The translations under genes and the position numbers were made by a program. Positions 3,939 to 62,717 of a stretch of 64,000 bases of DNA are shown here, one piece after another. The number at the start of each line of letters is the position of its first letter. Within the stretch, counting starts at the first letter, position 1. The notes beneath the pieces are model-generated. The model was not told where the DNA came from and searched no databases. It was given only the letters and a program-made list of their open reading frames with translations. The DNA is taken from NCBI GenBank assembly GCA_004348925.1, contig RCMX01000006.1:666919-730918 (forward strand), given 5' to 3'. Source of the stretch: Actinomycetota bacterium. Its GTDB lineage: Bacteria > Actinomycetota > Coriobacteriia > Anaerosomatales > Anaerosomataceae.

Positions 3939-4071
3939 GGATAAGCCCCTCCCGCTGTCCATGACGTCGTTGTTCGGTAGTTTCGCATAACGCGGCCAGG
4001 AATAGAACACGAGGCAGCCAAATGGCCCTGGTGTGATCCCGGAAGACGCGATGAGCGAGAAGCGGCGGCCG

Positions 4072-5181
4072 CTAGGGCAGTGACACGACCGGGTGGCAGT
4101 TCAGGCAGAGGTCGTCGTAGTACGCGGTCGAAGTCGCCTCGACGAGCATGCGATAGTTCTGCGTCTCGTGCGGGAAGTTCTGAAACCGGGGATTGTCCCC
4201 GTCGGTCCAGCCATCCGGCGTGGTGATGGTGTACGGCGCGGCGTCCCCCTGGGTGCCGTCCGCCGACAAGCTACCCACCATCCTCGAGTCCTCGTGGCAC
4301 TGCTGGCAGATTGGCGCATGTCCGGTCTGCTGCGCTGTACGAGGCCAGGGCATCAGGTAACCGCGGTTGCTTCCCGCAAGCGTGCCGAGAACGGTAACGC
4401 CGGTCAGGGCATCACCGTTGAGCTTGGCGACGTTCGTGTAGGTGAAGGGGGTCGCAGTCGTGGCTTTGGAATCTGCCGGATGGTTATGCGCCGCAGACAG
4501 TCCCGAGCTCCGACCCTTGTGACAGCCGAGACACCAGTCCGAGCCGTACTCTGCTGTGGGCGTCGTCGAGTTCCCGGGCGATCGCTTCAACAGCTTGCTT
4601 GAGGTGGTAACGCCGATGATTCCCCAGGTTGCCGACCGCTGACGTTCGCCGGCGTAGGCATTCACCACGTCTGCGCCGTGCGGGCTGTGGCATGAGGTGC
4701 ATGTTAGTGTTCCGCCGGGACCACCGAACGCCACGGGAAGCGAACCGCCGCTGTTCTCGTCGCCGCCCGGGACCACGTTGATCGCCTCCACGCTGTGCGA
4801 GGAGCCGACGCTGCGTCCACGGGCGGCGATCGCGCCGTACACGCCTCCACCGGCCGTGCCATCATGGCAGGTCATGCAGGTGGCTTTAGTGGTCGCACCG
4901 GGAAGCAGCATCACGCTCGATGCCGGCGCCTGATGAACGGAGTGGCACTCCCCGCACTTCGATGTGGTGATCGTATACCCGCCATGAACGCCGGCCTTGG
5001 GATCGTCGAATACCGAGCCTGGCCACGGATCATGGCACCCGCCGCAATTCGCTTCATCCATGCTGGGTGGAAGCGTCGAGGTGGTCTCATCGAACGCCAA
5101 AACAACGCTCGGGACCATAACGATCAGGGTCGCGAGCGCCGCGATGGCTGCGATTCGTATGACGGTTGAGCGCATGCTCAC
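4072..5181 (-). CDS. secreted heptaheme c-type cytochrome (paralogue B, tandem copy)
   Basis: Seven CxxCH motifs (CGGCH, CGECH, CMTCH, CTSCH, CLGCH, CQQCH, CLNCH). Signal peptide ...VVLAFDETTST. Collinear conserved blocks with paralogue A. Confidence 0.85.
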   Translation of the reverse strand: MSMRSTVIRIAAIAALATLIVMVPSVVLAFDETTSTLPPSMDEANCGGCHDPWPGSVFDDPKAGVHGGYTITTSKCGECHSVHQAPASSVMLLPGATTKATCMTCHDGTAGGGVYGAIAARGRSVGSSHSVEAINVVPGGDENSGGSLPVAFGGPGGTLTCTSCHSPHGADVVNAYAGERQRSATWGIIGVTTSSKLLKRSPGNSTTPTAEYGSDWCLGCHKGRSSGLSAAHNHPADSKATTATPFTYTNVAKLNGDALTGVTVLGTLAGSNRGYLMPWPRTAQQTGHAPICQQCHEDSRMVGSLSADGTQGDAAPYTITTPDGWTDGDNPRFQNFPHETQNYRMLVEATSTAYYDDLCLNCHPVVSLP

Positions 5182-5261
5182 CTCAGAGGACTTTGATTCA
5201 ACACCAATAGTACCCCGCGCACGCGTTGTATGCTAGCGCCGTGCCATGTCGCGCCCTCGCT

Positions 5262-5633
5262 TCAGCTGGCAAGGGTCCGCTCGACGACTTCGCGGAGCGC
5301 TCTGGGATCGAACGGTTTCGTCACGTACTCGTCGCAGCCGAGATCCGCGCCGTGCTTGAGGTCCGTGTTCTGAGCGGCCGTTGTGAGCATGATGACCTTC
5401 ACACCCGCGGTTTCAGGCCGTTTGCGCAAGAATCGCAGCACCTCGAAACCGTCCAGCTTGGGCATCGTCACGTCGAGAAGTACGAGGTCGGGGTGCTCGG
5501 CCATCGCGACCTCGAGCGCCTTCTCGCCGTCAACGGCCTGGAGAATCTCGTGCCCGAGCGAGCGCAATGCAGCGCTTACCAACAGTCGTATCTGCTGGTT
5601 GTCGTCGGCCACCAGTATCTTGCATGTCGCCAC
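5262..5633 (-). CDS. single-domain response regulator (CheY-like receiver)
   Basis: REC domain with DD pair, phospho-acceptor Asp in LVLLDVTMP and conserved Lys in YVTKPF. Confidence 0.85.
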   Translation of the reverse strand: MATCKILVADDNQQIRLLVSAALRSLGHEILQAVDGEKALEVAMAEHPDLVLLDVTMPKLDGFEVLRFLRKRPETAGVKVIMLTTAAQNTDLKHGADLGCDEYVTKPFDPRALREVVERTLAS

Positions 5634-5666
5634 GGGTGCCCCTCCTCGTGACGGCGCGGACAGAAC

Positions 5667-6119
5667 TCAGTCGCGATCTCGATGCATGATGTTCACGATG
5701 GTGTGCAGCTTCGCTTCTCGCTTTGCGCGCTCACGCGCGACCTGCTCGCGCTTCGACGGGTCGAGCATCGCTTCGATGTGATCGGCAACATCGGACGGCT
5801 TGAACGGCTTCGGGATGTAGTCGACGAAGTCGTCCTTCATCTGCTCGACCTGCTCCTCGAAGGTGCCAGCCGCCGAGAGGAACAGAATCGGGATCTCCTT
5901 GAACGCCGGCCTGCGGCGGAGCTCCTCGCGTACCTGGTGCCCCGTCATCTTCGGCATCATGACGTCGAGTACGATGAGGGATGGCTTCTCTGTCTCTGCC
6001 ATCGCAAGCGCTTCGATGCCGTTGTCTGCAGTCACGATGGTGTAGCCGCGATTCGTGAGCGCTACCGTGAGAAGCTTCTGGATCGACGGCTCATCGTCGA
6101 CTACGAGGATCTTCTTCAT
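5667..6119 (-). CDS. single-domain response regulator (receiver) with short C-terminal coiled/charged tail
   Basis: REC motifs VVDDEP, LIVLDVMMP, YIPKPF. C-terminal 30 aa are lysine/arginine/glutamate-rich. Confidence 0.85.
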   Translation of the reverse strand: MKKILVVDDEPSIQKLLTVALTNRGYTIVTADNGIEALAMAETEKPSLIVLDVMMPKMTGHQVREELRRRPAFKEIPILFLSAAGTFEEQVEQMKDDFVDYIPKPFKPSDVADHIEAMLDPSKREQVARERAKREAKLHTIVNIMHRDRD

Positions 6120-6500: not shown

Positions 6501-8668
6501 GAGTCCTCCAGCATGCTCTCGAGCAGGGCCTCGACGCGCCGTGCCAGTTCCTCTGCCGAGAACGGCTTATCCACCTTCTGTTGCGCAAGCCCGAGGATGT
6601 CGATGCGAGAGCGATCGATTTGATGTGCGGTCATCACGACGATGGGGATGTCCTTGGTCGCCGGATCCGTCTTCACCTTCTCTATGACCTGATAGCCGTC
6701 CATGACGGGCATCTGCAGATCGAGGAGGATCAGGTCCGGGTGTCTCTTCCTGAGCGCGGCCATAGCCTCGGCGCCGTCGTAGGCCGCCGCTACGGAGAAG
6801 CCCTTCGACTTCAGGTTTCGGCAGAGCAGGTCGACGATGTTGCGGTCGTCATCGACAACCAGGATCACGGGCGCCGCGACGCTGCCGACGAGATCGTCGA
6901 TGATCGTCGTGAGCCGTCGCTTGTCGATCGGCTTCTCAAGGTAGTCTGCCGCGCCAAGACGACACGAGCGACCCTCATCGCAGACGATCGAGAGCACCAG
7001 CACCGGGATCTCGCTCGTCTCCGGTGTGTCTTTGAGCTTCTGGAGAAGATCGAAACCGTCGCCATCGTCCAACATCACATCGAGTGTGATCACGCGCGGA
7101 CGGACCTCGATCGCCTTCTCGAGCGCCTCGGTGGCGTTGTGCGCCTTGACGACGTCGTACCCCTGCCTGACGAGGTAGGTCTCCACGAGGTTCGCGATCT
7201 CGGGGTCGCGGTCGACCACGAGCACCATGCCGCCTGCCGCGGTGGGGCCTTCTACTCCGGGCGTGCGAACGAGGTCCTTCGATGCGATCGGCAGCGAGAA
7301 CCAGAATGTGGAGCCTTTGCCGGCTGTGCTCTTCACGCCGACCTTCCCGCCGAGCAGCTCGATGATGCTCTTGCAGATGGACAGGCCGAGGCCGGTGCCG
7401 CCGATCTCGCGAGTGAGCGAGGAGTCGACGCGATAGAACTTCGTGAACAGCTTTGCCTGGTCTTCCTTGGCGATGCCGATTCCCTGGTCGGTGATCGCGA
7501 CCACGACCATATCGCCTTCTTGCTTCGCCTTGACGGTGACGCTTCCGCCCTCGGGCGAGTACTTGATCGCATTGCTGATGAAGTTCATCAGCACCTGACC
7601 GACCCGGTCTCGGTCTCCGGCGGCTTTCGGCAAGTCGTGCGGTGCCTTCGGGAGGAGTTTGTGTCCGCTCTGGTCGGACACTGCCTGGAATGTATCGACG
7701 GCGCCAGCGATCAGATCGCACATGTCGAGGGGCTGGATTTTGAGGTGGATCCGGCCGGACTCGATGCGCGAGATGTCGAGCATGTCGTTGATGAGCTCGA
7801 CCAGCCGGTCGGAGTTCTGCTTCACGATCGACAGGAACTCGCGCTGTATCTCGTTGATCTCGCCGGCTTCGCCGTCGAGGATCAGGTCGATGTAGCCCTT
7901 GATCGAGGTGAGCGGCGTCCTGAGTTCGTGCGACACGGTCGAGACGAATTCGTTCTTCATCTGGCCCACTTCGCGCTCCGCAGTCACGTCGTGAAGCGTT
8001 GCCACGTAGCCGAGATACCCGCCCTTGTCGTCGAGCACAGGGTCGGTGCGTACGTCCATGATGCGATGCTCTGGTTCCTCCAGCCGGACTTCTCGGACCT
8101 GAGAACCATCGATCGCAGGCGCGAAGCTGTCCTCGGGCACCATCGACAGCATCTCCCAGAGCGGGGTCCGCTTTCCGATGAGCTTGGCGGGCTTCAGGCC
8201 CGCAAGCATGCTTGCGGCCGGGTTGATGTAGGTGATCATCTCTTCGGCGTCGAAGACGATGAGGCCGTCACCGGTGCTTGCCAGGATCGCCTCGGCGCGT
8301 TTGCGGTACGCCTCGAGTGCCGTGTCGTCGCGCAGTGTGACGACGGCGGCCCGACGCCCGGAACAGTCGTACGGTGCGACCGTGGCTGCGACGACGCGGT
8401 CGCCAAGCAGGAGTCGAACGCCGTGGGGCTCCTTGCGCGACCTCGGGCGCAGCAGGCGTTCGATCATCGTCTCGATCTTCGGTTGCTTGAGCGTCGTGTA
8501 CAGCTTGCCGTGGACTTTCGACCGGGGTATGCCGAGCAGCTCCTCGGCGGTCTCGTTGAAGACGCGGATATCGCCGTCGGGTCCGACGGCAATCAAGCCT
8601 TCGCTCGTCGTAGCCATGAGCGCGCGGATGTGCAGGAAGGAACGACGTTCGTCAGCCTTCTGCGGCAA
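6497..8668 (-). CDS. hybrid sensor histidine kinase (PAS-PAS-HisKA-HATPase-REC-REC)
   Basis: H-box HELRTPLTSIKGYIDL. G-box [13 protein letters not shown]. Two C-terminal receiver domains (VLVVDRD..., ILVVDDD... LILLDLQMP). Confidence 0.85.
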   Translation of the reverse strand: MPQKADERRSFLHIRALMATTSEGLIAVGPDGDIRVFNETAEELLGIPRSKVHGKLYTTLKQPKIETMIERLLRPRSRKEPHGVRLLLGDRVVAATVAPYDCSGRRAAVVTLRDDTALEAYRKRAEAILASTGDGLIVFDAEEMITYINPAASMLAGLKPAKLIGKRTPLWEMLSMVPEDSFAPAIDGSQVREVRLEEPEHRIMDVRTDPVLDDKGGYLGYVATLHDVTAEREVGQMKNEFVSTVSHELRTPLTSIKGYIDLILDGEAGEINEIQREFLSIVKQNSDRLVELINDMLDISRIESGRIHLKIQPLDMCDLIAGAVDTFQAVSDQSGHKLLPKAPHDLPKAAGDRDRVGQVLMNFISNAIKYSPEGGSVTVKAKQEGDMVVVAITDQGIGIAKEDQAKLFTKFYRVDSSLTREIGGTGLGLSICKSIIELLGGKVGVKSTAGKGSTFWFSLPIASKDLVRTPGVEGPTAAGGMVLVVDRDPEIANLVETYLVRQGYDVVKAHNATEALEKAIEVRPRVITLDVMLDDGDGFDLLQKLKDTPETSEIPVLVLSIVCDEGRSCRLGAADYLEKPIDKRRLTTIIDDLVGSVAAPVILVVDDDRNIVDLLCRNLKSKGFSVAAAYDGAEAMAALRKRHPDLILLDLQMPVMDGYQVIEKVKTDPATKDIPIVVMTAHQIDRSRIDILGLAQQKVDKPFSAEELARRVEALLESMLEDS

Positions 8669-45571: not shown

Positions 45572-45689
45572 TCGTCCTCCTCGGTACGAGACGGGCTACC
45601 CGAACAGTACCATCAGTGTCTGACATGCTGCGGTGCGTCTGCCTGGGGTAGAACCTACGTACGAGTCCATCCACTCCTGCGGAGGCACC

Positions 45690-48047
45690 GTGAGCACCCC
45701 AGCATCTCCCACCATCCTCGTCGTCTTCGGCGCGACCGGCGACCTCATGGCGCGCAAGATCGTCCCCTCGCTCGCGTACCTCAAGGTGAAAGACCGCCTG
45801 CCCGAGCGCTTCCGCGTCATCGGCTTCTCCCGGCGCGACTGGAGCGACGCCGACTTGCGCTCGCATGTCGCGACTATCCTCGACGCCTACGAAGGCATCG
45901 CGCCCGCCGCCGAGGACCGCGAGGCGTTTCTCGGCATGTTCTCCTACCAGCGAGGTACGTTCGACGATGAGGACGCGTACCGGCAGCTTGCGGACGATGT
46001 CGAGGCCGTCGATGCGGCGTGGGGGCTGTGTGCAAGCAAGCTCTACTACCTCGCGGTGCCGCCCGAGAACTACCGTGTGATCTTCCAGCGCCTCTCGGAC
46101 AGCGGACTTGCCGAGCCATGCGACGACGGTGTCGGCTTCACGCGTGTGCTCGTAGAGAAGCCGTTCGGCAAGGACGGCAGCTCCGCGCAGGAACTCGATG
46201 AGCTTCTCGGCAGTCTCTTCGCCGAGGAGCAGGTGTACCGAATCGATCACTACCTCGCGAAGGAGATGCTGCAGGGCATCCTCTCCTTCCGCTTCAGCAA
46301 CGCGCTCTTCGAGCCATCGTGGGATGCGGGCTCGATCGATCACATCGACATCACGCTCCTGGAGTCGCTCGGGGTGGAGAAGCGCGGCGCGTTCTACGAC
46401 GGCGTCGGTGCGTTGCGCGACGTGGGGCAGAACCACCTGCTGCAGATGCTGGCGCTCGTACTCATGGACAAACCGGCGGACCTCTCGGCGGAAAGCATCC
46501 GGGCGAATCGCACCCGTTTTCTCCAGGACCTGAAGGCGCCCTCTCCCGACGACATCACGGCGCACTCGTTCCGGGCGCAGTACGTTGGCTACCGCGACAT
46601 CCCTGGCGTTGCCTCCGACTCCACCACTGAGACCTACTTTCGCCTGCGCTTCGCGCTGCACGGTGGACGGTGGGGTGGCGTGCCCGTCACGATGGAATCC
46701 GGCAAACGCATGGGCGAGGCGCTCAAGCAGGTCTCGGTCACCTTCCGCGCTCCGGAGGCCTGTCTGTGCGATGCCGAGGGACCGGGCCCGTACGAGAACC
46801 GCGTGACGTTCCAACTTGAGCCCGAGGAGTCCATCAAGATCCAGTTCTGGGCGAAGAAGCCGGGCTTCGAGCGCGAGCTCGAGCGGCGTGAGTTCACCTT
46901 CTTCCTGTACGAGAAGGAGGAGAAGGTCCAGTACGTCGAGGAGTACGCCAAGCTGCTGCTCGACGCGATCGCCGGCGACCAGACGCTCTTCGTCGCCACC
47001 GACGAGGTCCGCGCGATGTGGGCGTTCATCGACCCGTTCATGCGCGTGTGGGGGAGCGACGCCGTGCCGCTCGACAACTACGAGCCCGAGTCGGCCGAGG
47101 TGACCCGCCGTGCGCGCGAGAAGGTCGACGAGTCGCACATCGCTCGCATGGAGATCGGCGTCGTGGGTCTCGGCAAGATGGGCGCCAACCTGGCACGCAA
47201 CCTCATCGACCACCGCTGGCGCGTCGTGGGCTGGAACCGCACGCATTCGGTCGCCGAAGAGATGGAGGCCGAGGGCCTCGAGTCCGCCGCAACGTTTGCG
47301 GAGCTCGTGCGCGCGCTCAAACCGCCGCGTTCGGTGTGGCTGATGGTGCCGGCTGGCGCACCCGTGGATGACGTCATCTTCGGCGAGGGCGGTCTCGCGG
47401 AGCTGCTCGAACCCGGCGACGTCGTCATCGACGGCGGCAACTCGCACTTCATCCAGACGATCGAGCGCGCGCCGAGGGTTCTCTCGGCGGGACTGCGGTT
47501 CATCGACGTGGGGACCTCGGGCGGGCCGGGCGGCGCCCGGAACGGCGCCTGCCTCATGATCGGCGGCGTGCGCGAGGACTTCGAGCGCCTGGAGCATCTG
47601 TGGCGCGATCTGTCGGTGCGCGACGGCTACCGTTTCTTCGACGGGCACGGCTCGGGCCACTTCGTGAAGATGGTCCACAACGGCATCGAGTACGGCATGA
47701 TGCAGGCCATCGCCGAGGGATTTGCGCTCATGCGTCGCTCGGAGCTGGGCATTGACCTCGACGCCGCCGCCGAGGTCTACAACCGCGGCAGCGTCATCGA
47801 GTCGCGCCTTATCGGCTGGCTGGAGCAGGCGTATCGCGAGTTCGGCGAGGACCTGGAGGGCGTCTCGGGCACGGTCGGGCACACGGGCGAGGGCGAGTGG
47901 ACCGTGCGCGCCGCCGAGGCGCTCGGCGTGGACGCGCGCGTCATCCGCGACGCGCTTGAGGTGCGCAAGGAGTCCGAGACGAGCCCGAGCTACACCGGGC
48001 AGATCCTCTCGGCGCTGAGGAACCAGTTCGGCGGACATGCGCTGTGA
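45690..48047 (+). CDS. zwf-gnd: glucose-6-phosphate 1-dehydrogenase fused to short-form 6-phosphogluconate dehydrogenase
   Basis: N-terminal FGATGDLMARKIVPSL and RIDHYLGKE-like G6PD motifs. From about residue 490, MEIGVVGLGKMGANLARNL... is a Rossmann fold plus 6PGDH C-domain. Single ORF with no stop. GTG start after GGAGG. Confidence 0.8.
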   Translation: MSTPASPTILVVFGATGDLMARKIVPSLAYLKVKDRLPERFRVIGFSRRDWSDADLRSHVATILDAYEGIAPAAEDREAFLGMFSYQRGTFDDEDAYRQLADDVEAVDAAWGLCASKLYYLAVPPENYRVIFQRLSDSGLAEPCDDGVGFTRVLVEKPFGKDGSSAQELDELLGSLFAEEQVYRIDHYLAKEMLQGILSFRFSNALFEPSWDAGSIDHIDITLLESLGVEKRGAFYDGVGALRDVGQNHLLQMLALVLMDKPADLSAESIRANRTRFLQDLKAPSPDDITAHSFRAQYVGYRDIPGVASDSTTETYFRLRFALHGGRWGGVPVTMESGKRMGEALKQVSVTFRAPEACLCDAEGPGPYENRVTFQLEPEESIKIQFWAKKPGFERELERREFTFFLYEKEEKVQYVEEYAKLLLDAIAGDQTLFVATDEVRAMWAFIDPFMRVWGSDAVPLDNYEPESAEVTRRAREKVDESHIARMEIGVVGLGKMGANLARNLIDHRWRVVGWNRTHSVAEEMEAEGLESAATFAELVRALKPPRSVWLMVPAGAPVDDVIFGEGGLAELLEPGDVVIDGGNSHFIQTIERAPRVLSAGLRFIDVGTSGGPGGARNGACLMIGGVREDFERLEHLWRDLSVRDGYRFFDGHGSGHFVKMVHNGIEYGMMQAIAEGFALMRRSELGIDLDAAAEVYNRGSVIESRLIGWLEQAYREFGEDLEGVSGTVGHTGEGEWTVRAAEALGVDARVIRDALEVRKESETSPSYTGQILSALRNQFGGHAL

Positions 48048-48161: not shown

Positions 48162-49283
48162 ATGCTGAGACGACTGCCCGCCGCTTTGATGGTTACCGCC
48201 TTCGTGTTCTTCCTCTTCGGCGCGGCATCGACCGCGTTCGCGTTCAACGACGCAGGTTGGACGGGCGGAGTCACCTGCAGCAGCTGCCACCATCCCGGTG
48301 GTATGGCCATCGCCAACTACGGTCCGCACGGAGCGTATTCGACTGCGACACGGGCGTGCAAGACGTGCCATACCCTTCATGATGCTCCCGGTGGTTTGAA
48401 GCTTCTGCCTGGCGACACCGTCAAGGCCACATGCGAGGTGTGCCACGACGGCACCGGTGGCGGTGGCGTCTACGGCGCGATCGCCGCGCGCGGTCTGACG
48501 GTCGGCGGCAAGCACGGTATCGAGACCACATCGGTCGTCCCCGGCGGCAGCGCATCCGACGGCGGCAGCGCGACGATGGCCTTCGGAGGTGCGAACTCGA
48601 CGTTAACGTGTAGTGACTGTCACTCACCTCACGGGAGCGACTGCGTCGACCCCTTCCTCGGCGAGCGGCAGCGCGATGGGGTCGCAATTGGTCTCTTCGA
48701 TGTTTCAACTTCGAATCGACTGCTCAAGCGCCACCCAGGTGGAGCGACCACGGAGACGGTGCAGTACGGTTCTGACTGGTGCCTCTCGTGCCACCAGGGC
48801 CGCGCGTCGGGTCTCTCGGCGGTGCACAACCATCCCGCGGAATCGGCGCTCACGACCGCCAATCCCGCGTACTACCAGGCAGCTGCGATTCTCGGTACGG
48901 CTCCGTATCCCACAGCAACGACGGTCATCGGGTCTATGGGAGTCAACACGAAGAACGCGGGGTACAACCGCGCCTACCTCTGGCCGTGGCCCAGGACCGG
49001 TGCCCAAGCGGGCCGACTCCCCATCTGCCAGCAGTGCCACGAGGACACCCGGAACGTCGGGAGCCTGACGGCCGACGGCACGCAGGGCGTTCCGAGCGAG
49101 ACCACCATCACGGCCCAGTCGGTCGGTGGGCCGTCGGGCAACGGAATCAACCCGACTGACAACCCACGGTTCCAGAACTTCCCGCACGAGACGCAGGGGT
49201 TCCGGTTGCTTGTCGAGGCGGACACCACCTACTTCGCTGATGACCTTTGCATGAACTGTCACCCGGTGGTGGCGCTGCCGTAG
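48162..49283 (+). CDS. secreted heptaheme c-type cytochrome (paralogue C)
   Basis: Seven CxxCH motifs (CSSCH, CKTCH, CEVCH, CSDCH, CLSCH, CQQCH, CMNCH). Signal peptide ...AFAFND. Same conserved blocks as paralogues A and B. Confidence 0.85.
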   Translation: MLRRLPAALMVTAFVFFLFGAASTAFAFNDAGWTGGVTCSSCHHPGGMAIANYGPHGAYSTATRACKTCHTLHDAPGGLKLLPGDTVKATCEVCHDGTGGGGVYGAIAARGLTVGGKHGIETTSVVPGGSASDGGSATMAFGGANSTLTCSDCHSPHGSDCVDPFLGERQRDGVAIGLFDVSTSNRLLKRHPGGATTETVQYGSDWCLSCHQGRASGLSAVHNHPAESALTTANPAYYQAAAILGTAPYPTATTVIGSMGVNTKNAGYNRAYLWPWPRTGAQAGRLPICQQCHEDTRNVGSLTADGTQGVPSETTITAQSVGGPSGNGINPTDNPRFQNFPHETQGFRLLVEADTTYFADDLCMNCHPVVALP

Positions 49284-54555: not shown

Positions 54556-55737
54556 TCAGCCCGTGCGCTTCCGTTCGAGCGGGATGTCGAACCGGAACGT
54601 CGAGCCTTCGCCGGGCGTAGTGCATACGTCGATTCGACCGCCGAGCAGCTCAACGATCTTGCGGCTTATCGAGAGCCCCAGCCCCAGACCGGAAGTCTTC
54701 GCAGTATCGGCTATCTCGAGCTGCTGGAACGGGTCGAAGATTCTCTCGGCGAGCTCTGCGGGCATCCCGATCCCGGAGTCCGAGACTTCGAACCATGCGC
54801 GTTCGGAGCCCGAGCCGTACCGAATCGTCACCGACCCTTCCGGGGAGAAGCGCACGCCATTGCCGATGAGCCGGACGAGCACCTGGCGGACGCGGTCTGG
54901 AGAGGAGATGATTCGGACTGGCACCGCCGACGGCTCGATCGCGATGGTGATGCCCTTTTCGGCGGCGATCGGCCGCATGACCTGTGCCGCTGCATCAACC
55001 ACCCAGGCGGCGTCGAACGACTCGATCTCGTCGCCGGGAAGCTCCTGCTCGACGAACGCCATCTCGAGGGCGTCGTTGAGCAGGGCAAGCAGGTAGCGCC
55101 CGGACTTCCCGATCATCTCAAGCTGCGCGCGCTGTTCGTCCGTTACGTCGCCGGCCAGACCGTTCACCATGAGATCCGAGAAGCCGATGATGGAGTTGAG
55201 CGGCGTGCGCAATTCATGCGACATCGCCGAGAGGAACTCGGATTGGCTCGCCCGGAGGATCTCGATCTCCTCCAACAGCCGCTGTATCTCCTCCTGGACT
55301 GTCGCATTCGCCACGGTGGCGGGAACCGCCTGCGCGCGCTCCTTGCGCAAGGCGCGAATCTCGGTCACGAGGTCGCCGTTTATCGAGATGAGCTCGTCCA
55401 GGATGGCAGCATCGTTCTCATGTGATGGGGCGGCGAATACCAGGTAGCCTTCGCTCACCTTCGAGCCCGTGAGCCGAATGGAAACCGGACCCCCGGGGGC
55501 CACGACGTCTACCGGCCAATCGAAGGCGCGGCCACGCGACGCCGTCTCTGCGAAGAACGCGATCACGTTCCTGGTCTGGTCGGGGTAGACGATCGACGCA
55601 AGCGGGGCGCCCTCAAGCATCGGCTGAGCGAGTCGCATGTGATTGCTGATCACCTCGACGATCAGCCCCGACCCATCGCAGAGCACCGCGAAGCAGGCGG
55701 TGTCGTCTGACGGGCGCGTGTCCGGACCGTCGGTCAT
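54556..55737 (-). CDS. sensor histidine kinase (PAS-HisKA-HATPase), cytoplasmic
   Basis: H-box SHELRTPLNSIIGFSDL and G-box GLGLGLSISRKIVELLGG. ATGA overlap with the upstream B12-binding gene. Confidence 0.8.
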   Translation of the reverse strand: MTDGPDTRPSDDTACFAVLCDGSGLIVEVISNHMRLAQPMLEGAPLASIVYPDQTRNVIAFFAETASRGRAFDWPVDVVAPGGPVSIRLTGSKVSEGYLVFAAPSHENDAAILDELISINGDLVTEIRALRKERAQAVPATVANATVQEEIQRLLEEIEILRASQSEFLSAMSHELRTPLNSIIGFSDLMVNGLAGDVTDEQRAQLEMIGKSGRYLLALLNDALEMAFVEQELPGDEIESFDAAWVVDAAAQVMRPIAAEKGITIAIEPSAVPVRIISSPDRVRQVLVRLIGNGVRFSPEGSVTIRYGSGSERAWFEVSDSGIGMPAELAERIFDPFQQLEIADTAKTSGLGLGLSISRKIVELLGGRIDVCTTPGEGSTFRFDIPLERKRTG

Positions 55738-56792
55738 GCGACGAGCCCGGCAGCGGCTTTGAGCGCCTCCGGAGCCGAGCGGGCGAAGTTGTCTGCGCCG
55801 ACGCGCTTCCACAGCTCAGGTGCCAGGTTGAACGGATAGCCACCGACGAGGACCTTCACATTCTTCGTGGCGTCGTTATCGCGAAGCAGCCGGATGATCT
55901 CGGCCACCTCCTCGACTCTGAACGACATCGTTGCCGAGAGTGCGAGCACATCGGCACCGCGCTCCGCGGCGGTCGTGACGATGGATGACGCCGGCATATT
56001 GGCACCGAGGTAGTGAGTATCCCAGCCGTCCATCTCGAAGAAGTCGGTGACCATTCGTAGCCCGAGCTCGTGCAATTCCGAGCCGACGCACGCCGCAACG
56101 AGGGTGTGTTCTTTCGGGGCGTCGGTGAAGATCTCTCCGTAGAGCTGCGACATCACCATCTGGGTAACGGCCGTCGCGTAGTGCTCCTGCGCCACCGAGA
56201 TGCGATTCAACTGCCACAGGCGACCAAGCTCTAGCTGTGCCGGCTGGAAGACGTGCGTGTAGATGTCGCGCACCGGCGTGCCTGCCGCAACCGCATCCAG
56301 GATGGAGCGGGATGCGCCGTGACGGTCGCCGCCGAGCACTGCGCCGAGGTAGCGAACGGCAAGCGAGCCCAGAGGCTGATCCGGCGTGATGTACGAAGCG
56401 ATCGAGGTGTCAGCGGTTTCAAGAGCGGCGATCGCGCGGTCGATCAGGAGAGCGGCGCGCGCGGCAGACTCGGCACCGAGGTCCTTCGCGATCGCGTCTC
56501 GGACGTCAGCGAGGCTGCCCGAAAGCCACTCGGCCGGCAGGGCAAGGTTCTCGAACAAGACCTTCACCCAGAGCACGTAGTTGTCGTAGAGCGCGGCCTC
56601 GTTCGCCCACAGCGATGAAGCGAGGAATTGGAGATGATACTTCGTGTCTTGCACCATATTTCGGTACTGGTCGTCCGAGAGAGTGGATCGCAGCTGTGGC
56701 CATCGTAGATCCTGCAGTTCGAGCGCCGTATCGGCCAGGCCGTCCAGCTTTGCCCGGATGTTGCGGCTCACGTCTTCGGATGATGCCCCCAT
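55734..56792 (-). CDS. cobalamin (B12)-binding domain sensor protein
   Basis: B12-binding_2 helical domain, then a Rossmann-like B12-binding domain with a GSELHELG (DxHxxG-like) motif and a C-terminal VLVGG. Confidence 0.7.
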   Translation of the reverse strand: MGASSEDVSRNIRAKLDGLADTALELQDLRWPQLRSTLSDDQYRNMVQDTKYHLQFLASSLWANEAALYDNYVLWVKVLFENLALPAEWLSGSLADVRDAIAKDLGAESAARAALLIDRAIAALETADTSIASYITPDQPLGSLAVRYLGAVLGGDRHGASRSILDAVAAGTPVRDIYTHVFQPAQLELGRLWQLNRISVAQEHYATAVTQMVMSQLYGEIFTDAPKEHTLVAACVGSELHELGLRMVTDFFEMDGWDTHYLGANMPASSIVTTAAERGADVLALSATMSFRVEEVAEIIRLLRDNDATKNVKVLVGGYPFNLAPELWKRVGADNFARSAPEALKAAAGLVA

Positions 56793-56966
56793 TGTCGCCC
56801 CGCTTTCACGAAGAGGGTGGAAAGCTCTGTGACGCCGGGCCCGGGTGAGCAGGCGTCAGCTACACGTGCTGGGGAAATGATACCCTTCCTGTCGGCGCAC
56901 ACTCGCATGATAATGCGATAGGCGGGCAGTATGCTGGTGCGTGCGGTCAACAAGTGACGACGAACA

Positions 56967-59078
56967 TTGGTGCTTCGGCGGGGAGGACGTTTGGGTGAGC
57001 GGTCACAGTCGGCTCCGGACGGCTTCGATCAGCTGATCGAGGCCCTTGAGGGCGCGTGGTCCGGGCATGGAGCAGCCTGCGACGACCTTCCCGGCTCCCC
57101 GGAGCAGCAGGCCCGCCTCGGCAAGCTTCTGGCCGATATCCGGGCAACTCGTATGCTCGCTGACGCGGTCGCCGAGAGTGCACTGCGATCCGACGTGGAC
57201 GTTGAAGGCCCGCTCGCGGACCGCCTCAGAACGTGTCAGGCGAACCTTCGCGAGATCACTGCGCAAGCACGCGCGGTCACTCGTGGTGACTATTCGTACG
57301 TGGCGGGTGTACGCGGCGAGTTGGCACAGGCTCTTGGCGACATGCGGCAGGCTTTGAGCGCGGCTCAAGAAGCTCAGATGCGGCTTGCGGACGAGCTTGT
57401 CGCGTCCAACTCGCGTCTTGGTGAAGAGGTGCGCACGCGACGCAGGGCGGAGAGCGCACTCGCGGAAGCGAATGAGGAGCTTGCGGCCGCGAACGAGGAA
57501 CTTGCCGAGACGAACGCTGAGCTTGAAGTCGCCACGCGCGCAAAGAGCGACTTCCTGTCGGCGATGAGCCACGAGATCAGAACACCGATGAACGCCATCA
57601 TCGGCATGGGCGAGCTGCTGCAGGAGACGAGCCTCGACGACGAGCAGCGCAGGTACATCCACACCCTGATCAATGCCGGCGAAGCGCTGCTGGCGATCAT
57701 CAACGACATCCTTGATCTGTCGAAGATCGAGGCGGGGAAGTTCGAGCTCGACCCACGTGAGTTCGATATCACCCAGCTGGTCGAGGGAACCGCGGACGTC
57801 GTGGCGATCCGTTCGCGCGAACGCGGTCTTGATCTGCTCGTCGACATCGAGGGAGACGTGCCGCTCGTCGTGTTCGGCGACGACAACAGGCTGCGGCAGG
57901 TGCTCGTGAATCTGTTGGGGAACGCGGTGAAGTTCACCGAGAGCGGGCACGTTCTTCTCTCGGTCCGACAGGGTTCGCGTCCCGGGCTGGTGCGGTTCGG
58001 CGTGTCGGACACCGGCATCGGCATACCGGCCGATCGGCTGGCGACCATCTTCGAGGCATTCACGCAGGCTGATTCGAGCACGACGCGTCGGTATGGGGGC
58101 ACCGGACTCGGCCTGTCGATCTCGAGCCGATTGGTAGCGCTCATGGATGGTCGGCTGCAGGTCTCGAGCGTGGTGGGCGAAGGGAGCGAGTTCTTCTTCG
58201 AGGTGGCGCTTCCGCCGATCGGCGACGTTCGTGCGGCTTCGGTCGCTGCTGACCTTTCGGGGATGCGTGCGCTTGTCGTCGACGATGAGCCGACCAACCG
58301 CTACATCCTCCGGCGGTATCTGGGTGAAGCAGGCATGGAAACGGTAGAAGCCGGCGGTGCGAAAGAGGCGATGTCGCTTCTGGGCGGAGGCGGGGGATTC
58401 CATGTGATCCTCTCGGACATGCGCATGCCGGACGTCTCCGGGCTCGAGTTGGTAGGGATGATTCGGGAGAATCCCGGACTCAGCCGCATCCCCGTGCTCA
58501 TGTTCTCGAGCGACAACCGGCCGGGAGAAGCAGCGCTGTTGAGGAGCAAGGGCGCGGACGACCTGCTGCTCAAGCCGGTGCATCGCGCTGACCTCATGGG
58601 TGCTCTGCAGCGTGCGCTCGGGAAAAGCGCAGGCGCTGCTGTGAGCCAGTCGCCGACGCCGGTGACCGCGGCCGAGACGATTCCCGCGAAGCTCCTCCTG
58701 GTGGAGGACAACGAGGACAACCTGACGCTTGCGTTGGCCTACCTTGCCAAGACAGCGCACCACGTGGTCACGGCCCGCAATGGCCGAGAAGCCGTTGACG
58801 CTTTCATCGGCGCCGGCCCCGGCACCTTCGACGTGGTGTTCATGGATATGCAGATGCCCGAGATGGATGGCCTTGAGGCAACGAGGGTCATCCGGGCCCA
58901 TGAAGCGGAGAACGGCTGGCACCGCGTGCCGATCATCGCGTTGACCGCGTACGCGCTCGCCAGCGAGGCACAGGAGGCGCTTGACGCGGGCTGTGATCGC
59001 CACATGACGAAGCCGATTCGCAAGGCGAGCTTCCTTGAGGCGGTGGCGGAGTACGCCGGCCACGCGAACGCGGGCTGA
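56967..59078 (+). CDS. hybrid histidine kinase (coiled-coil-HisKA-HATPase-REC-REC)
   Basis: H-box [15 protein letters not shown]-box [13 protein letters not shown]. Two receivers (ALVVDDEP..., [10 protein letters not shown]...[10 protein letters not shown]). Confidence 0.8.
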
Positions 59079-59263
59079 TCAGCACAGCGGCTGGCGTGTC
59101 GCCGTGGCCCCCCGGACGCCCGTGATGGGCGGTCCGCGATGGCTTGCGGTGCACGGGCATCGAGCGCATACCTCTCTGTTCAGGTACTCTATTCACGTAC
59201 GGACATCGATTGTGCCCGCCGTTCACCTCGGCCAGGGCCTTCGAGCAGCGAAGGGGAATCCTC

Positions 59264-60661
59264 ATGGCGCAAGCCAAGAACACCATATCGTCCACGGCGC
59301 CTCTGGGCGTGCCGAGCGGCCGAGAGGCTGCTCTCGATGCCTGGACCGCTATCGCTGATGAGCGATCGGTCGTCGACCCCGGACTCTATCTGGAGTACGA
59401 CGTGAAACGCGGTCTTCGCGACCAGAACGGGCGCGGCGTCCTGGCGGGTCTCACCCGAATCGGTGACGTCATCGGCACCGTCGCCGACGGCGATCAGCTG
59501 GTGCCTGCGCCCGGCAAGCTGCTCTATCGCGGCATCGAGATCACCGAGCTCGTCGACGGCTTCGTCGCCGAACACCAGCACGGGTTCGAGGAGACGGCGT
59601 ACCTTCTGCTCTTCGGCTCGTTGCCGACCAAGGCGCAGCTCGATGAGTTCGACGATTACCTCTCGGGAATGCGACGAATGCCCCGTTCGTTCATCCACGA
59701 CGGGATACTCCGCATGCCGAGCAACGACATCATGAACGCCATGATGCGCGGCGTGCTCGGCCTGTACACACTCGACCCCAACGCGGACGACACCTCTACG
59801 AGAAACGTGTTGCGGCAGAGCCTGCACCTCATCGCCAAGCTCCCCATGCTCGCCGTGTACGCGTATCAGGCTTACCTTGACGAGTTCCACGGCAAGAGCC
59901 TCGTCATCCACCGCCCGGAGCCCGACTGCTCCACCGCCGAGAACTTCCTGCACATGCTGCGTCCCGACAGCAGCTTCACCAAGCTCGAGGCGCTCGTTCT
60001 CGACATGATGTTGGTGCTGCATGCCGAGCATGGCGGCGGCAACAACTCTTCGTTCACTACGCACGTCGTGTCGTCGACGGGAACAGACACATACTCGGCC
60101 GTCGCCGCATCGCTCGGCTCGCTCAAGGGCCCGCGGCACGGCGGCGCGAACATCAAGGTCGTCGGCATGCTCGACGACCTGAGCGAGAAAGTCTCGGACT
60201 GGGAGGACGACGAGCAGATCGCCGACTATCTTCACCTGATGCTGGAGAAGAAGGCGTTCGACAAGTCCGGCCTCATCTACGGCATGGGTCACCCTGTGTA
60301 TTCGGTGTCCGACCCACGTGCCGTGCTCCTGCGTGCCTATGCCGAGAAGCTCGCCGCCGAGAAGGGCTTCTCGAAGGAGTTCGCATTGCACGCGCGCGTC
60401 GAGCGGATCGCGCCGCTGATCGTCTCGGCGCAGCGCAGGCTTTACAAGGGCGTCAGCGCGAACGTCGACTTCTACTCGGGATTCGTCTATCGCATGCTCG
60501 ACATCCCGCCCGAGCTGTACACGCCGCTTTTCGCCATCTCCCGCGTGGTCGGCTGGAGCGCGCACCGGCTCGAGGAGATCGCCAACGGCGGCAAGATCAT
60601 CCGACCTGCCTACAAGAGCGTCTGCCCGCGACAGGAGTATGTGCCACTCAAGGATCGCTAG
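59264..60661 (+). CDS. citrate synthase
   Basis: Citrate synthase signature GYGHxVY-like (GMGHPVYSVSDPR) and NVDFYSG. Confidence 0.85.
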   Translation: MAQAKNTISSTAPLGVPSGREAALDAWTAIADERSVVDPGLYLEYDVKRGLRDQNGRGVLAGLTRIGDVIGTVADGDQLVPAPGKLLYRGIEITELVDGFVAEHQHGFEETAYLLLFGSLPTKAQLDEFDDYLSGMRRMPRSFIHDGILRMPSNDIMNAMMRGVLGLYTLDPNADDTSTRNVLRQSLHLIAKLPMLAVYAYQAYLDEFHGKSLVIHRPEPDCSTAENFLHMLRPDSSFTKLEALVLDMMLVLHAEHGGGNNSSFTTHVVSSTGTDTYSAVAASLGSLKGPRHGGANIKVVGMLDDLSEKVSDWEDDEQIADYLHLMLEKKAFDKSGLIYGMGHPVYSVSDPRAVLLRAYAEKLAAEKGFSKEFALHARVERIAPLIVSAQRRLYKGVSANVDFYSGFVYRMLDIPPELYTPLFAISRVVGWSAHRLEEIANGGKIIRPAYKSVCPRQEYVPLKDR

Positions 60662-60670
60662 GGGACCCTC

Positions 60671-62011
60671 ATGCGGTTGATCCTACGGGGAGTATTCTGG
60701 TTCGGCCTGTACCTCACGATCATCCTGTTCCCGCTTGTCGTGGGTGTGATCTTTTTCGACCCGCGACAGGCGGCGGGTCCGCTGATCTACCTGTCGGCCG
60801 CCGCCGGTTACATCGCGATCGCGCTCATGGCGACCGAGCTCACCCTTGTCGCGAGGCTCAAAGGCGTGGCCGGCGCGTTCGGTATCGACTCGCTGCTCCA
60901 GTTCCACCGCGAGATCGGCATCGCGTCGATTGCGTTCGCTGCGGCGCACCCGCTCTTGCTCGTGGCGGATCGCGCGTACACTGCGGGGCTGCTCGTTCCG
61001 TCTGCTACGACACCGTGGCCGGTGACCGTGGGATTCGCCGCATTCATCGTGGCCGCGCTCGTTGTCGGACTCTCCGTCTACCGACGCCTGCTTCGCATGT
61101 CGTACGAGCTCTGGCATACGACGCACGGCGTGCTGTCGGTCATCCTGATCGGCTTCGGAGCGGCGCATATTCTCGGTATCGGGCGGTTCGCGGCGCTGCC
61201 GGTCATGCGGACGCTGGTGATCATCTATCTGGTGTTCTTCGTTGGGATCTTCTTGCGCTACCGCCTGGCGCGCCCGCTCTCACTGTGGCACCGGCCGTGG
61301 GAGGTGGTGGAGAATCGCCCCGAACACGGTCAGTCGCACACCCTGGTGCTGCGTCCGGTCGGGCACGAGGGGTTCCGGTTCGAGCCCGGTCAGTTCGCCT
61401 GGATCGGCTTCGGGCCGACCCCGCTCAACACCGACAAGCATCCGATCTCGTTCTCCTCGAACGGCGACATCCCAAGCCATGACGGTGCCATCGCATTCAC
61501 GATCAAAGAGCTGGGCGACTGGTCGGGCGGCGTCGTACCTGCAGTGAAACCCGGCACCCGCGCATGGGTCGACGGACCACATGGCGTGTTCACGATGGAT
61601 CGCGAAGAAGGCGCCGGCTACGTGCTCATCGGCGGCGGCGTGGGCATCACGCCGCTCTATTCGATGCTGCAGGCGCTTGAGACTCGCGCAGACGCGCGGC
61701 CCGTCTTCATGTTCCATGCGGCCAACGACTTCGACGACCTCACCTTCCGGGAGGAACTCGCGGCGACGGCGGCTCGCATGCCCTCATTGACGCTGGTGAC
61801 GGTACTCGTGCGCGCCGATGATGAATGGGAGGGGGAGCGCGGATTCGTGAACGCAGAGATCCTCTCCCGGCATCTTCCTCCTGCGCTGTACCGGCACTTC
61901 CAGTACTTCATCTGCGGCCCAACGCCGCTGATGGATGCCATGGAAGAGGTGCTCCCGAAGATCGGAGTCCCGGCGGAGCGCATCCACACCGAGCGTTTCG
62001 ACATGGTGTAG
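60671..62011 (+). CDS. NOX/ferric-reductase-family flavocytochrome b (6-TM bis-heme domain + FAD + NAD(P)H domains)
   Basis: Paired His in TM3 and TM5 (FHREIG...AAAHPLL, LWHTTHGV...GAAHILG). HPISF FAD motif. GGGVGITP NAD(P)H motif. C-terminal FICGP. Confidence 0.8.
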   Translation: MRLILRGVFWFGLYLTIILFPLVVGVIFFDPRQAAGPLIYLSAAAGYIAIALMATELTLVARLKGVAGAFGIDSLLQFHREIGIASIAFAAAHPLLLVADRAYTAGLLVPSATTPWPVTVGFAAFIVAALVVGLSVYRRLLRMSYELWHTTHGVLSVILIGFGAAHILGIGRFAALPVMRTLVIIYLVFFVGIFLRYRLARPLSLWHRPWEVVENRPEHGQSHTLVLRPVGHEGFRFEPGQFAWIGFGPTPLNTDKHPISFSSNGDIPSHDGAIAFTIKELGDWSGGVVPAVKPGTRAWVDGPHGVFTMDREEGAGYVLIGGGVGITPLYSMLQALETRADARPVFMFHAANDFDDLTFREELAATAARMPSLTLVTVLVRADDEWEGERGFVNAEILSRHLPPALYRHFQYFICGPTPLMDAMEEVLPKIGVPAERIHTERFDMV

Positions 62012-62019
62012 GAGGACGA

Positions 62020-62628
62020 ATGAACCACCGCATCGTGTCTACCGTGGTCATGATCATCGTGGCGTTCTTCGTGGGCGCGGTGGCGCTGTTCGCCGGCACT
62101 GCGACGTCGGTCGCACCTGCAGCGAGCGCCGAGGCTCCGAAGAACCCGCATCCCCCTTCGCGACGGACCGCATCGTGCCTCGAGTGCCACAACGGGGAGC
62201 AGCACACCATCCCGTCGACGCATCGCAACTTCGACCTTGCGACGTGCGCCTCGTGCCATGTGGAGGCGATGCGCGTGATCGTCCCGCACACCGCCGCCAT
62301 GGGTGACGCCCGCTGTCCGCTCTGTCACGGCGAACCGGCGCGCGACCACGGGATTCCGGTCAGTCATCTTCGGTACGAATCGGGCGAGTGTCTGCTCTGC
62401 CATCCGGGAGATCCTGCGAACTACGACAAGCAGCCGTCGCCAGCCGGATTGTCGAAGAGTCCGGCAGGAGCGATTCCGCATGCTCTGGACGGAGTCTTCG
62501 CCGAGTGCTCGGGATGTCACTTCGTCACAGCCAAAGCCACGCTGCCAGAGAACCACCGGGACTTCCCCGCGGACAGCTGTGGCGGCTGTCATGACCATGA
62601 GCCCGCAGAAGCGGGAGCCGGTAAGTAG
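62020..62628 (+). CDS. membrane-anchored hexaheme c-type cytochrome
   Basis: N-terminal TM anchor. Six CxxCH (CLECH, CASCH, CPLCH, CLLCH, CSGCH, CGGCH). ATG 8 nt after the upstream stop, with GGAGGA RBS. Confidence 0.8.
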   Translation: MNHRIVSTVVMIIVAFFVGAVALFAGTATSVAPAASAEAPKNPHPPSRRTASCLECHNGEQHTIPSTHRNFDLATCASCHVEAMRVIVPHTAAMGDARCPLCHGEPARDHGIPVSHLRYESGECLLCHPGDPANYDKQPSPAGLSKSPAGAIPHALDGVFAECSGCHFVTAKATLPENHRDFPADSCGGCHDHEPAEAGAGK

Positions 62629-62629
62629 G

Positions 62630-62717
62630 TGGCGGAGGGGGTGGGATTCGAACCCACGAACCCTTGCGGGTCAACAGTTTTCAAGACTGTCGCATTCAAC
62701 CACTCTGCCACCCCTCC
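62630..62717 (-). tRNA. tRNA-Ser (anticodon TGA)
   Basis: 88 nt with a long variable arm. Anticodon loop CTTGAAA. Acceptor GGAGGGG/CCCCTCC. CCA encoded. Confidence 0.8.

Follow-up and report, generated by a model that had tools for sequence, protein, structure and literature searches.

A NOX-like flavocytochrome b paired with an anchored hexahaem cytochrome c, and a candidate small subunit of long-form FRD enzymes

Among the described systems closest to the gene pair reported here is the NADPH oxidase of S. pneumoniae (SpNOX; 8qt6, 8qq7). The pair lies at positions 60671-62628 of a 64,000-nucleotide stretch of DNA from an Actinomycetota bacterium of the Anaerosomatales (contig RCMX01000006.1), the whole of which we call the window, and consists of a reductase gene (gene 1) followed immediately by a gene for a membrane-anchored hexahaem c-type cytochrome (gene 2). 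SpNOX and the gene 1 product are alike in being one polypeptide with six membrane helices, of which the third and fifth hold two bis-histidine b-haems, in carrying the FAD/NAD(P)H domain at the C-terminus, and in having short outer loops. Purified SpNOX reduces cytochrome c directly, also under argon, which its authors credit to the short outer loops (Hajjar et al., 2017). However, SpNOX acts alone with O2 as its acceptor, whereas gene 1 is paired with a haem-c protein of its own and belongs to a lineage with anaerobic cultured relatives. We consider it probable that the products of genes 1 and 2 form one membrane complex that exports electrons from NAD(P)H through FAD and two b-haems to c-haems.

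Other described systems share parts of this layout. MsrQ-like clusters combine a PF01794 protein, with or without PF00175, with FMN_bind and ApbE proteins, and NAD(P)H-driven export to an extracytosolic flavoprotein has been proposed for them (Meheust et al., 2021). They belong to the same wide reductase family (the Streptomyces-type loci that we sampled are about 30% identical to gene 1), they too encode an N-terminally anchored or signal-bearing extracytosolic carrier directly downstream, and the logic of passing electrons from NAD(P)H to that carrier is shared. Their carrier, however, is an FMN_bind protein that depends on ApbE for its covalently bound flavin, whereas the carrier in the window is a c-type multihaem protein; the distant loci of this kind are without the M-x22-F-A helix described below (0/36), and the window pair falls outside the FMN_bind/ApbE definition of such clusters, with no FMN_bind or ApbE gene among its annotated neighbours (the window holds only part of the downstream side). 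In the Fre-MsrQ-MsrP system of E. coli an FRD dihaem protein passes NAD(P)H-derived electrons to a dedicated extracytoplasmic partner, but there flavin reduction falls to a separate protein, and the electrons go to a soluble molybdoenzyme that has its own defined substrate rather than to a haem chain. In CymA and other NapC/NirT proteins, ImcH, CbcL, and the PCC3 and PCC4 proteins, an anchored multihaem c or dihaem b membrane protein starts an extracytoplasmic haem chain, but the donor is the quinone pool and there is no NAD(P)H domain, whereas the donor in the window would be NAD(P)H. The PCC3 and PCC4 proteins among these are FRD-like dihaem proteins with two HX13H motifs from the porin-cytochrome clusters of iron oxidisers, and they are thought to be quinone-linked (He et al., 2017). 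Bacterial NOX-like enzymes, long-form FRD proteins, MsrQ-like/FMN_bind clusters, and FRD-like porin-cytochrome proteins are thus known, and what is new here is the wiring and the putative small subunit. An earlier note on this DNA, made from its letters alone, knew of no description of the arrangement, and we likewise found no description in the open-access literature of an FRD-FNR protein paired with either a multihaem cytochrome c or a micropeptide; cytochrome c is not mentioned in the survey of FRD proteins by Zhang et al. (2013).

Gene 1 (60671-62011, forward strand, 446 aa) encodes an FRD flavocytochrome b fused to an FNR-type dehydrogenase domain, as read from its open reading frame (ORF), Pfam, an AlphaFold2 model, and Foldseek. 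Ferric_reduct (PF01794) matches residues 45-161 with 51 bits (cut-off 28) and NAD_binding_1 (PF00175) matches residues 319-425 with 79.9 bits (cut-off 22). Of the three Pfam families that the earlier note had proposed to search for, only Ferric_reduct was recovered: FAD_binding_8 (16.1 bits, cut-off 22) and NAD_binding_6 both fall under the Pfam cut-off, and NAD_binding_1 is found instead. Matches to NCBIfam are partial and confined to FNR-type reductase components. The AlphaFold2 model (pLDDT 72.4, pTM 0.59) has six membrane helices (residues 2-27, 37-59, 72-99, 116-136, 145-170, and 177-207), joined on the outside by three short loops of about 9, 16, and 6 residues and followed by a two-lobed dehydrogenase domain. 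The positive-inside rule puts the dehydrogenase domain in the cytoplasm, since it is at the N-terminus, in loops 60-71 and 137-144, and past helix 6 that basic residues are concentrated.

The cofactor ligands of gene 1 are strictly conserved in an alignment of 19 homologues that are 50-87% identical to it. Two H-x13-H pairs are invariant, H79 and H93 on modelled helix 3 (60905-60949) and H152 and H166 on modelled helix 5 (61124-61168). In NOX2, H101 and H115 are the inner and outer haem ligands on helix 3 (Zhang et al., 2013), and by analogy H79 and H152 would bind the inner haem and H93 and H166 the outer one. In the dehydrogenase domain, the FAD-binding motif HPISF (residues 257-261; 61439-61453) has an invariant H257 and P258, the NAD(P)H-binding motif GGGVGITP (residues 321-328; 61631-61654) is invariant at G322, G323, V324, G325, T327, and P328 and conserved in at least 70% of sequences at I326, and the C-terminal CGP motif of the FNR-type nucleotide domain (C415, G416, and P417; 61913-61921) is invariant. 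All the elements that the earlier note had read in this gene, namely four transmembrane histidines, HPxSF, GxGxxP, and CGP, are therefore present. Homologues of gene 1 fall into more than 1400 clusters, the top matches coming from Coriobacteriia, Anaerosomatales, and 'Actinobacteria' metagenome-assembled genomes (MAGs).

Structural comparison points to NOX enzymes for the whole protein and to a broader family for its dehydrogenase half. In a Foldseek search of the PDB with the gene 1 model, SpNOX (8qt6) was the top match (E 1.7e-19, TM-score 0.62/0.68, 442 columns), followed by human NOX2, DUOX1, and NOX5, and a sequence profile of gene 1 also reaches SpNOX (5e-18) and NOX2 (6e-8). Over residues 210-443, however, this profile is closest to general FNR-type domains, such as those of MmoC (6e-26), cytochrome b5 reductase, NqrF, and flavohaemoglobin. 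The membrane domain alone found no NOX match in the PDB, whether the query was its sequence or a profile of 10 sequences, and the link to NOX haem ligands therefore rests on PF01794, the H-x13-H pattern, and the whole-model Foldseek match. On that basis the four invariant histidines on helices 3 and 5 correspond to the haem ligands of NOX and FRE proteins.

Whether gene 1 should be called a NOX depends on more specific signatures. Three of the four NOX filters of Hajjar et al. (2017) are passed (the NADPH motif, two His-X12/14-His motifs, and a helix count of 3-7), but the FAD filter, H[PSA]F[TS][LIMV], is failed, since HPISF has Ile at position 3 and Phe at position 5. A further signature of NOX enzymes that generate reactive oxygen species is an extra histidine four residues past the outer helix-3 haem ligand, His-119 in NOX2 (Zhang et al., 2013); gene 1 has no equivalent, the residue at position +4 from H93 being L97, an invariant leucine in the homologue alignment. 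Gene 1 does have what Zhang et al. (2013) describe for bacterial long-form FRD proteins, PF01794 with four histidines and C-terminal FAD- and NAD(P)H-binding domains. Because the FAD filter and the His-119 signature failed, we file gene 1 on its sequence as a bacterial long-form FRD protein, NOX-like in predicted fold and wiring, and not as a NOX in the strict sense. Its earlier description as NOX-type holds for fold and architecture, where SpNOX is the best match, but not for the two NOX-specific signatures, and its dehydrogenase is of the general FNR type, with NAD_binding_1 rather than NAD_binding_6. Cultured Anaerosomatales are strict anaerobes, so O2 would be an unlikely substrate there.

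Gene 2 (62020-62628, forward strand) follows the TAG stop codon of gene 1 (62009-62011) after a gap of 8 nt, and its ribosome-binding site GGAGGA (62011-62016) overlaps the last base of that stop and ends 3 nt before the ATG at 62020; the gap and the site had both been pointed out before. The ORF, which Pfam matches and close homologues in 37 clusters (clustered at 90% identity) support, encodes 202 aa, not the 203 first reported. Its product begins with a helix (residues 2-31; 62023-62112), MNHRIVSTVVMIIVAFFVGAVALFAG, which is the sole confident part of the AlphaFold2 model (pLDDT 88-98) and in which H3, R4, V6, V10, F17, A20, and F24 are invariant among 22 homologues. The homologue alignment has no conserved AxA or signal-peptidase site after the helix, and together with the conservation of the helix itself this leads us to read it as a signal anchor; its basic N-terminus fits an N-in/C-out orientation. 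Attachment of c-type haem occurs outside the cytoplasm. From this, and from the order of basic N-terminus, helix, and haem domain, we take the cytochrome to face outward and not into the cytoplasm, in line with the single transmembrane helix and six external CxxCH haems of the original proposal.

The rest of the protein is built from three copies of a dihaem module of about 38 residues, H-x8-9-CxxCH-x9-11-P-x2-H-x6-8-CxxCH. Repeat 1 (residues 44-80; 62149-62259) comprises H44, CLECH 53-57, H68, and CASCH 76-80; repeat 2 (residues 90-128; 62287-62403) comprises H90, CPLCH 99-103, H116, and CLLCH 124-128; and repeat 3 (residues 154-191; 62479-62592) comprises H154, CSGCH 163-167, H179, and CGGCH 187-191. 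In the 22 homologues all six CxxCH motifs (starting at residues 53, 76, 99, 124, 163, and 187) are invariant, as are exactly six further extracytoplasmic histidines (H44, H68, H90, H116, H154, and H179), which on sequence would be enough for bis-histidine ligation of all six haems. This combination of CxxCH motifs and spare histidines is that of bis-histidine multihaem c-type cytochromes of a class III-like kind, and the Pfam matches, although weak, are of class-III/c7 type (Cytochrome_C7, 30.7 bits, cut-off 24.8; Cytochrom_c3_2, 25.1 bits, cut-off 25). A sequence search of the PDB with gene 2 gave nothing significant. We also considered and rejected a NapC/NirT quinol dehydrogenase, as Cytochrom_NNT gave no match at E <= 1 and NrfH, with 12.6 bits, stayed below its cut-off of 134. 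When 1.84 billion representatives were searched with a profile, 384 relatives of gene 2 were found, many of them dihaem proteins of 87-100 aa that begin MNHRIVS...LFA. The same dihaem module also recurs 9-17 times in giant metagenomic proteins (P0165, 943 aa; P0181, 1516 aa; P0238, 1967 aa), and in the subclade of locus L082 (7351-7950) the sixth haem motif is CxxxCH (CRFICH or CRFVCH), kept in two independent sequences including P0161.

The two genes stay together in related genomes. Every fetched locus with at least 56% reductase identity and a readable downstream region conforms to this. A helix-anchored cytochrome adjoins the reductase in L001 (83% identity to gene 1; hexahaem), L164 (87%; about 200 aa, with the same flanks as the window), L165 (78%; about 200 aa, different flanks), L082 (58%; five CxxCH and one CxxxCH), L085 (56%; hexahaem), L128, and L081 (63%), where the hexahaem gene (7352-7975) has two frameshifts and is either a pseudogene or a long-read assembly error. 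We also count L166 (71%), which has different flanks and a downstream partner ORF of about 200 aa with no Pfam hit on record. In L084 (82%) an IS110-like insertion (transposase 4861-6117, reverse strand) lies exactly between two intact genes. The gap between reductase and cytochrome is 8-15 nt in all inspected loci, and 10 further pairs are inferred among homologues that apparently share contigs. Because the flanks differ while the pair stays, the pair behaves as a unit, and because motifs and pairing are conserved on many independent contigs, these features are not due to chance; the synteny that the earlier note had proposed to look for is there. Co-transcription and translational coupling are plausible in view of the conserved short gap; a scan for promoters and terminators gave nothing above chance. 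We found no named cultured isolate with the pair, all named members being MAGs, and the window protein itself is TDB38219.1 from an 'Actinobacteria bacterium' MAG.

The neighbours of some of these loci raise the alternative that the pair serves extracytoplasmic redox protection, either detoxifying O2 or H2O2 or repairing envelope proteins in the manner of Fre-MsrQ-MsrP, with the multihaem protein as a peroxidase, oxidase, or relay. A catalase-peroxidase gene converges on the pair in L166 and L165 has a gene for methionine sulfoxide reductase (PMSR) some 3 kb from it, MsrQ is an established precedent for an FRD protein that feeds a periplasmic repair enzyme, and such defences are frequent in strict anaerobes. 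These neighbours are not kept between loci, however, no MsrP-type gene is adjacent, and the six haems of gene 2 are apparently all bis-histidine ligated and so offer no obvious open site for O2 or H2O2 chemistry. We regard a protective role as quite unlikely.

Returning to electron export, the analysis shows the domain architecture, the conservation of every cofactor ligand, the NOX-like fold, the conserved pairing, and a helix whose conservation is specific to its position. The association of the two proteins, the direction of electron flow, the donor and its preferred nucleotide, and the final acceptor are matters that we infer. In the proposed path, cytoplasmic NAD(P)H would reduce FAD in the FNR-type domain of gene 1, electrons would cross the membrane through the stacked b-haems from the inner (H79/H152) to the outer (H93/H166), and the outer b-haem would pass them on to the cytochrome, starting at its first c-haem. 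As a small subunit docked on the reductase, the N-terminal helix of gene 2 would hold the three dihaem modules just outside the membrane. The final acceptors might be secreted heptahaem cytochromes, shuttles of the humic type or soluble Fe(III), or a reductase outside the cytoplasm. For the first of these there are candidates in the window, since it encodes three paralogous heptahaem cytochromes (Paired_CXXCH_1; 2847-4010 and 4072-5181 on the reverse strand and 48162-49283 on the forward strand), as had been noticed before. Unlike the uncleaved anchor of the hexahaem protein, their signal peptides are cleavable and end AFA|F or LAF|D, and judging by sequence they could be downstream acceptors from the anchored hexahaem. 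A fused glucose-6-phosphate dehydrogenase/6-phosphogluconate dehydrogenase gene (45633-48047, forward strand, 804 aa) lies 114 nt before the last of these heptahaem genes on the same strand; it puts two NADPH-producing steps into a single protein.

The direction of flow bears on the role of such a complex. Electrons would depart from the cytoplasmic side and carry negative charge outward, so membrane potential would be spent, as in NOX2, and a redox outlet is likelier than a coupling site. The likeliest role of the module is a quinone-independent outlet for cytoplasmic reducing equivalents that feeds extracellular haems. This would make sense by analogy with two cultured Anaerosomatales strains, strict anaerobes with a Gram-positive wall that have 17-18 multihaem cytochromes each and no detectable respiratory quinones, and one of which reduces Fe(III): such organisms could use a link from the cytoplasm to outside haems that does not involve quinones. 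The opposite direction, in which an outside donor (Fe(II), a partner cell, or a shuttle in its reduced form) would supply the cytochrome and NAD(P)+ would be reduced by the flavocytochrome, appeals to the reversibility in principle of haem chains and to relatives that grow lithoautotrophically and need reduced pyridine nucleotides. We consider it extremely unlikely, since electrons moving inward would have to work against a membrane potential that is negative inside and against the low potential of the NAD(P)+/NAD(P)H couple, there is no ion-translocating module to drive them, and all characterised NOX, FRE, and MsrQ systems run outward.

Comparison with more distant reductases suggests that the anchor helix of gene 2 is one of a far larger set of such helices. 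We examined 163 loci from one-per-species genomes and metagenomes, a sample and not a census, and took as partner ORF any ORF beginning -45 to +70 nt from the reductase stop codon. A hydrophobic N-terminal segment occurs in the partner ORF of 122 of 153 loci, compared with 8.8% of 1399 control stop codons from the same loci. More specifically, the register M-x22-F-A, which the N-terminus of gene 2 matches with F24-A25, is found at 89 of the 121 loci whose reductase is at least 33% identical to gene 1, at none of 36 more distant loci, and at 14 of the 1399 control stops. Most ORFs with this register are micropeptides of 29-31 aa with the consensus M-R-[HRQ]-x4-R-L-V ... L-F-A-[LW]-x-[RQ], which begin 8-25 nt past the stop codon of a long-form FRD-FNR gene in Actinobacteria, Proteobacteria, Cyanobacteria, Chloroflexi, and others (L003-L163); examples equivalent to window positions 62020-62112 are those of L009 (7306-7395), L037 (4654-4746), L119, and L153. 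Substitutions in the partner ORFs number 2018, 997, and 3641 at codon positions 1, 2, and 3, and a Shine-Dalgarno-like motif lies upstream in 73 of the 89 related loci; this third-position bias and these motifs indicate that the micropeptide ORFs are real coding genes. Representative micropeptides match nothing in Pfam or NCBIfam, and the ORF is unlisted in the single annotated record that we checked. The proposed equivalence of the gene 2 helix to these micropeptides rests on position, length, register, and motif.

Single-helix subunits partner other haem-containing membrane oxidoreductases, for example CydX in cytochrome bd and p22phox and DUOXA for eukaryotic NOX and DUOX. The micropeptide gene directly follows the reductase gene as cydX follows cydAB, but there is no sequence relationship to CydX, p22phox, or DUOXA, and the repeated extension by c-haems is without counterpart there. 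At 17 sampled loci the helix carries c-haem domains with 1, 2, 3, 4, 5+1, or 6 haems. A neighbour-joining tree built from the reductases places these loci in at least four separate groups. One is the clade of the window, which has dihaem modules; another is betaproteobacterial and has a single haem; a third, from Myxococcus, has a monohaem domain of class I (Pfam Cytochrome_CBB3/Cytochrom_C); and a fourth has two or four haems. The tree is crude, so the count of independent haem-c fusions is approximate. Chloroflexi-type loci are a three-gene version of the reductase-to-c-haem arrangement, in which reductase and micropeptide are accompanied by a separate lipoprotein, about 350 aa long and pentahaem, that weakly matches MtrC/MtrF domain II/IV (L003 3303-4382; L006 7465-8514; L004 8029-9144; L091 965-2101). 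In distant actinobacterial loci of the Streptomyces type, the slot directly after the reductase holds an FMN_bind protein. With either haem-c or FMN_bind partners in it, this slot appears to have been filled repeatedly by an anchored extracytoplasmic one-electron carrier.

We tentatively suggest, as a possibility that we hold to be less likely than not, that long-form FRD enzymes have an unrecognised, near-universal single-helix subunit of about 30 aa that has repeatedly been extended into a wire of 1-6 haems, and that its hexahaem version is the missing, quinone-independent step from NAD(P)H to extracellular cytochromes in quinone-free, Gram-positive, iron-reducing bacteria of the Coriobacteriia type. 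With this step, extracellular electron transfer would have a NOX-like entry that does not depend on quinones. For Gram-positive metal reducers in which no quinones are detectable, an NAD(P)H-to-haem-c flavocytochrome would be a simple answer to the question of how electrons get out of the cytoplasm. It would also mean that NOX-type enzymes pass electrons to protein-bound haem rather than to O2 or a metal chelate, so far seen only as an in-vitro side reaction of SpNOX, and it would provide a compact two-gene part for engineering electron export. The micropeptide, which appears to be uncatalogued beside hundreds of 'ferredoxin reductase family' genes, may be needed for the biochemistry of those enzymes.

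Several observations weigh against these proposals. First, most members of the family carry the haem-free micropeptide only, so the core enzyme works without c-haems. Second, the energetic cost noted above applies to the whole scheme: outward flow dissipates membrane potential, which would argue against a main respiratory role. Third, the genes beside the pair include none for a terminal reductase, a porin, or a component that would span the wall, and a hexahaem domain of 170 aa cannot alone span a Gram-positive wall. The cytoplasm-to-surface wire of the earlier note therefore holds as a candidate NAD(P)H-FAD-haem b-haem c module, supported by architecture, ligands, and pairing, but not as a wire that crosses the wall unaided. 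Fourth, a search for the CcsA WWD motif revealed no cytochrome c maturation gene in the window. Fifth, the model of gene 2 is poor outside the helix (pLDDT 51.6). Finally, a hidden Markov model of 82 micropeptides, searched against all ORFs of the window, finds the cytochrome with a non-significant E of 8.4. Homology of the helix cannot be claimed from HMMER, and for this reason the register and position test with its controls was used instead.

That failure of HMMER to tie the helix to the micropeptide family is what one would expect if the two genes had separate functions, their adjacency reflecting compact gene order and the helix being a generic signal anchor. We consider this very unlikely, because the pairing outlasts complete turnover of the flanks and, in L084, the insertion of a mobile element, because the helix register is position-specific, and because cytochromes of different types have been fused independently and repeatedly at this one position.

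The prevalence of micropeptide-only members is also compatible with a metal reductase of the yeast FRE or STEAP kind that has an assimilatory or housekeeping role. It would reduce extracellular chelates of Fe(III) or Cu(II), serving uptake or the delivery of cofactors, and the c-haems would do no more than enlarge its reducing surface. Gene 1 groups with presumptive metalloreductases by the criteria of Zhang et al. (2013), having no NOX-type His-119; some MsrQ-like clusters are tied to the iron transporter VIT1 (Meheust et al., 2021); and proteobacterial members, such as those of L167, L024, and L140, adjoin CtaG-like genes for the assembly of cytochrome oxidase. For the pair in the window we nevertheless judge this unlikely. 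No iron or copper transporter lies beside the pair in the window or in L164-L166, the lineage comes from the anoxic subsurface, where Fe(II) should presumably be available, six haems exceed the need of a one-electron chelate reductase, and the variable number of dihaem modules (1, 2, or 3) fits a wire or relay better. Electron export through the anchored cytochrome thus remains our preferred reading of the window pair. In the proteobacterial loci just mentioned (L167, Paracoccus marcusii plasmid NZ_CP157012, 1-2310; L024 7419-8141; L140), the reductase adjoins genes for cytochrome c oxidase subunit II as well as the CtaG-like genes, which hints that haem-free proteobacterial versions may act as metal, possibly copper, reductases.

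The annotated neighbours of the pair are genes for a Band_7 protein, a histidine kinase, a B12-binding protein, a hybrid kinase, citrate synthase, tRNA-Ser, and tadA. The citrate synthase gene (59144-60661, forward strand; Pfam Citrate_synt, 3.1e-113) ends 9 nt before gene 1. A functional link between it and the pair was considered and rejected, because the adjacency recurs only in the 87%-identical relative L164 and is absent from L165, L166, L081, and L082. On the other side, a tRNA-Ser(tga) gene found by ARAGORN (62630-62717, reverse strand) begins 2 nt past gene 2 and forms the downstream boundary of the two-gene unit. Upstream of citrate synthase, positions 54556-59078 encode the histidine kinase, the B12-binding-domain protein, which has a weak phycobilisome-like match at its N-terminus, and the hybrid kinase, which has two receiver domains; together these genes may be a light- or cobalamin-linked signalling cluster.

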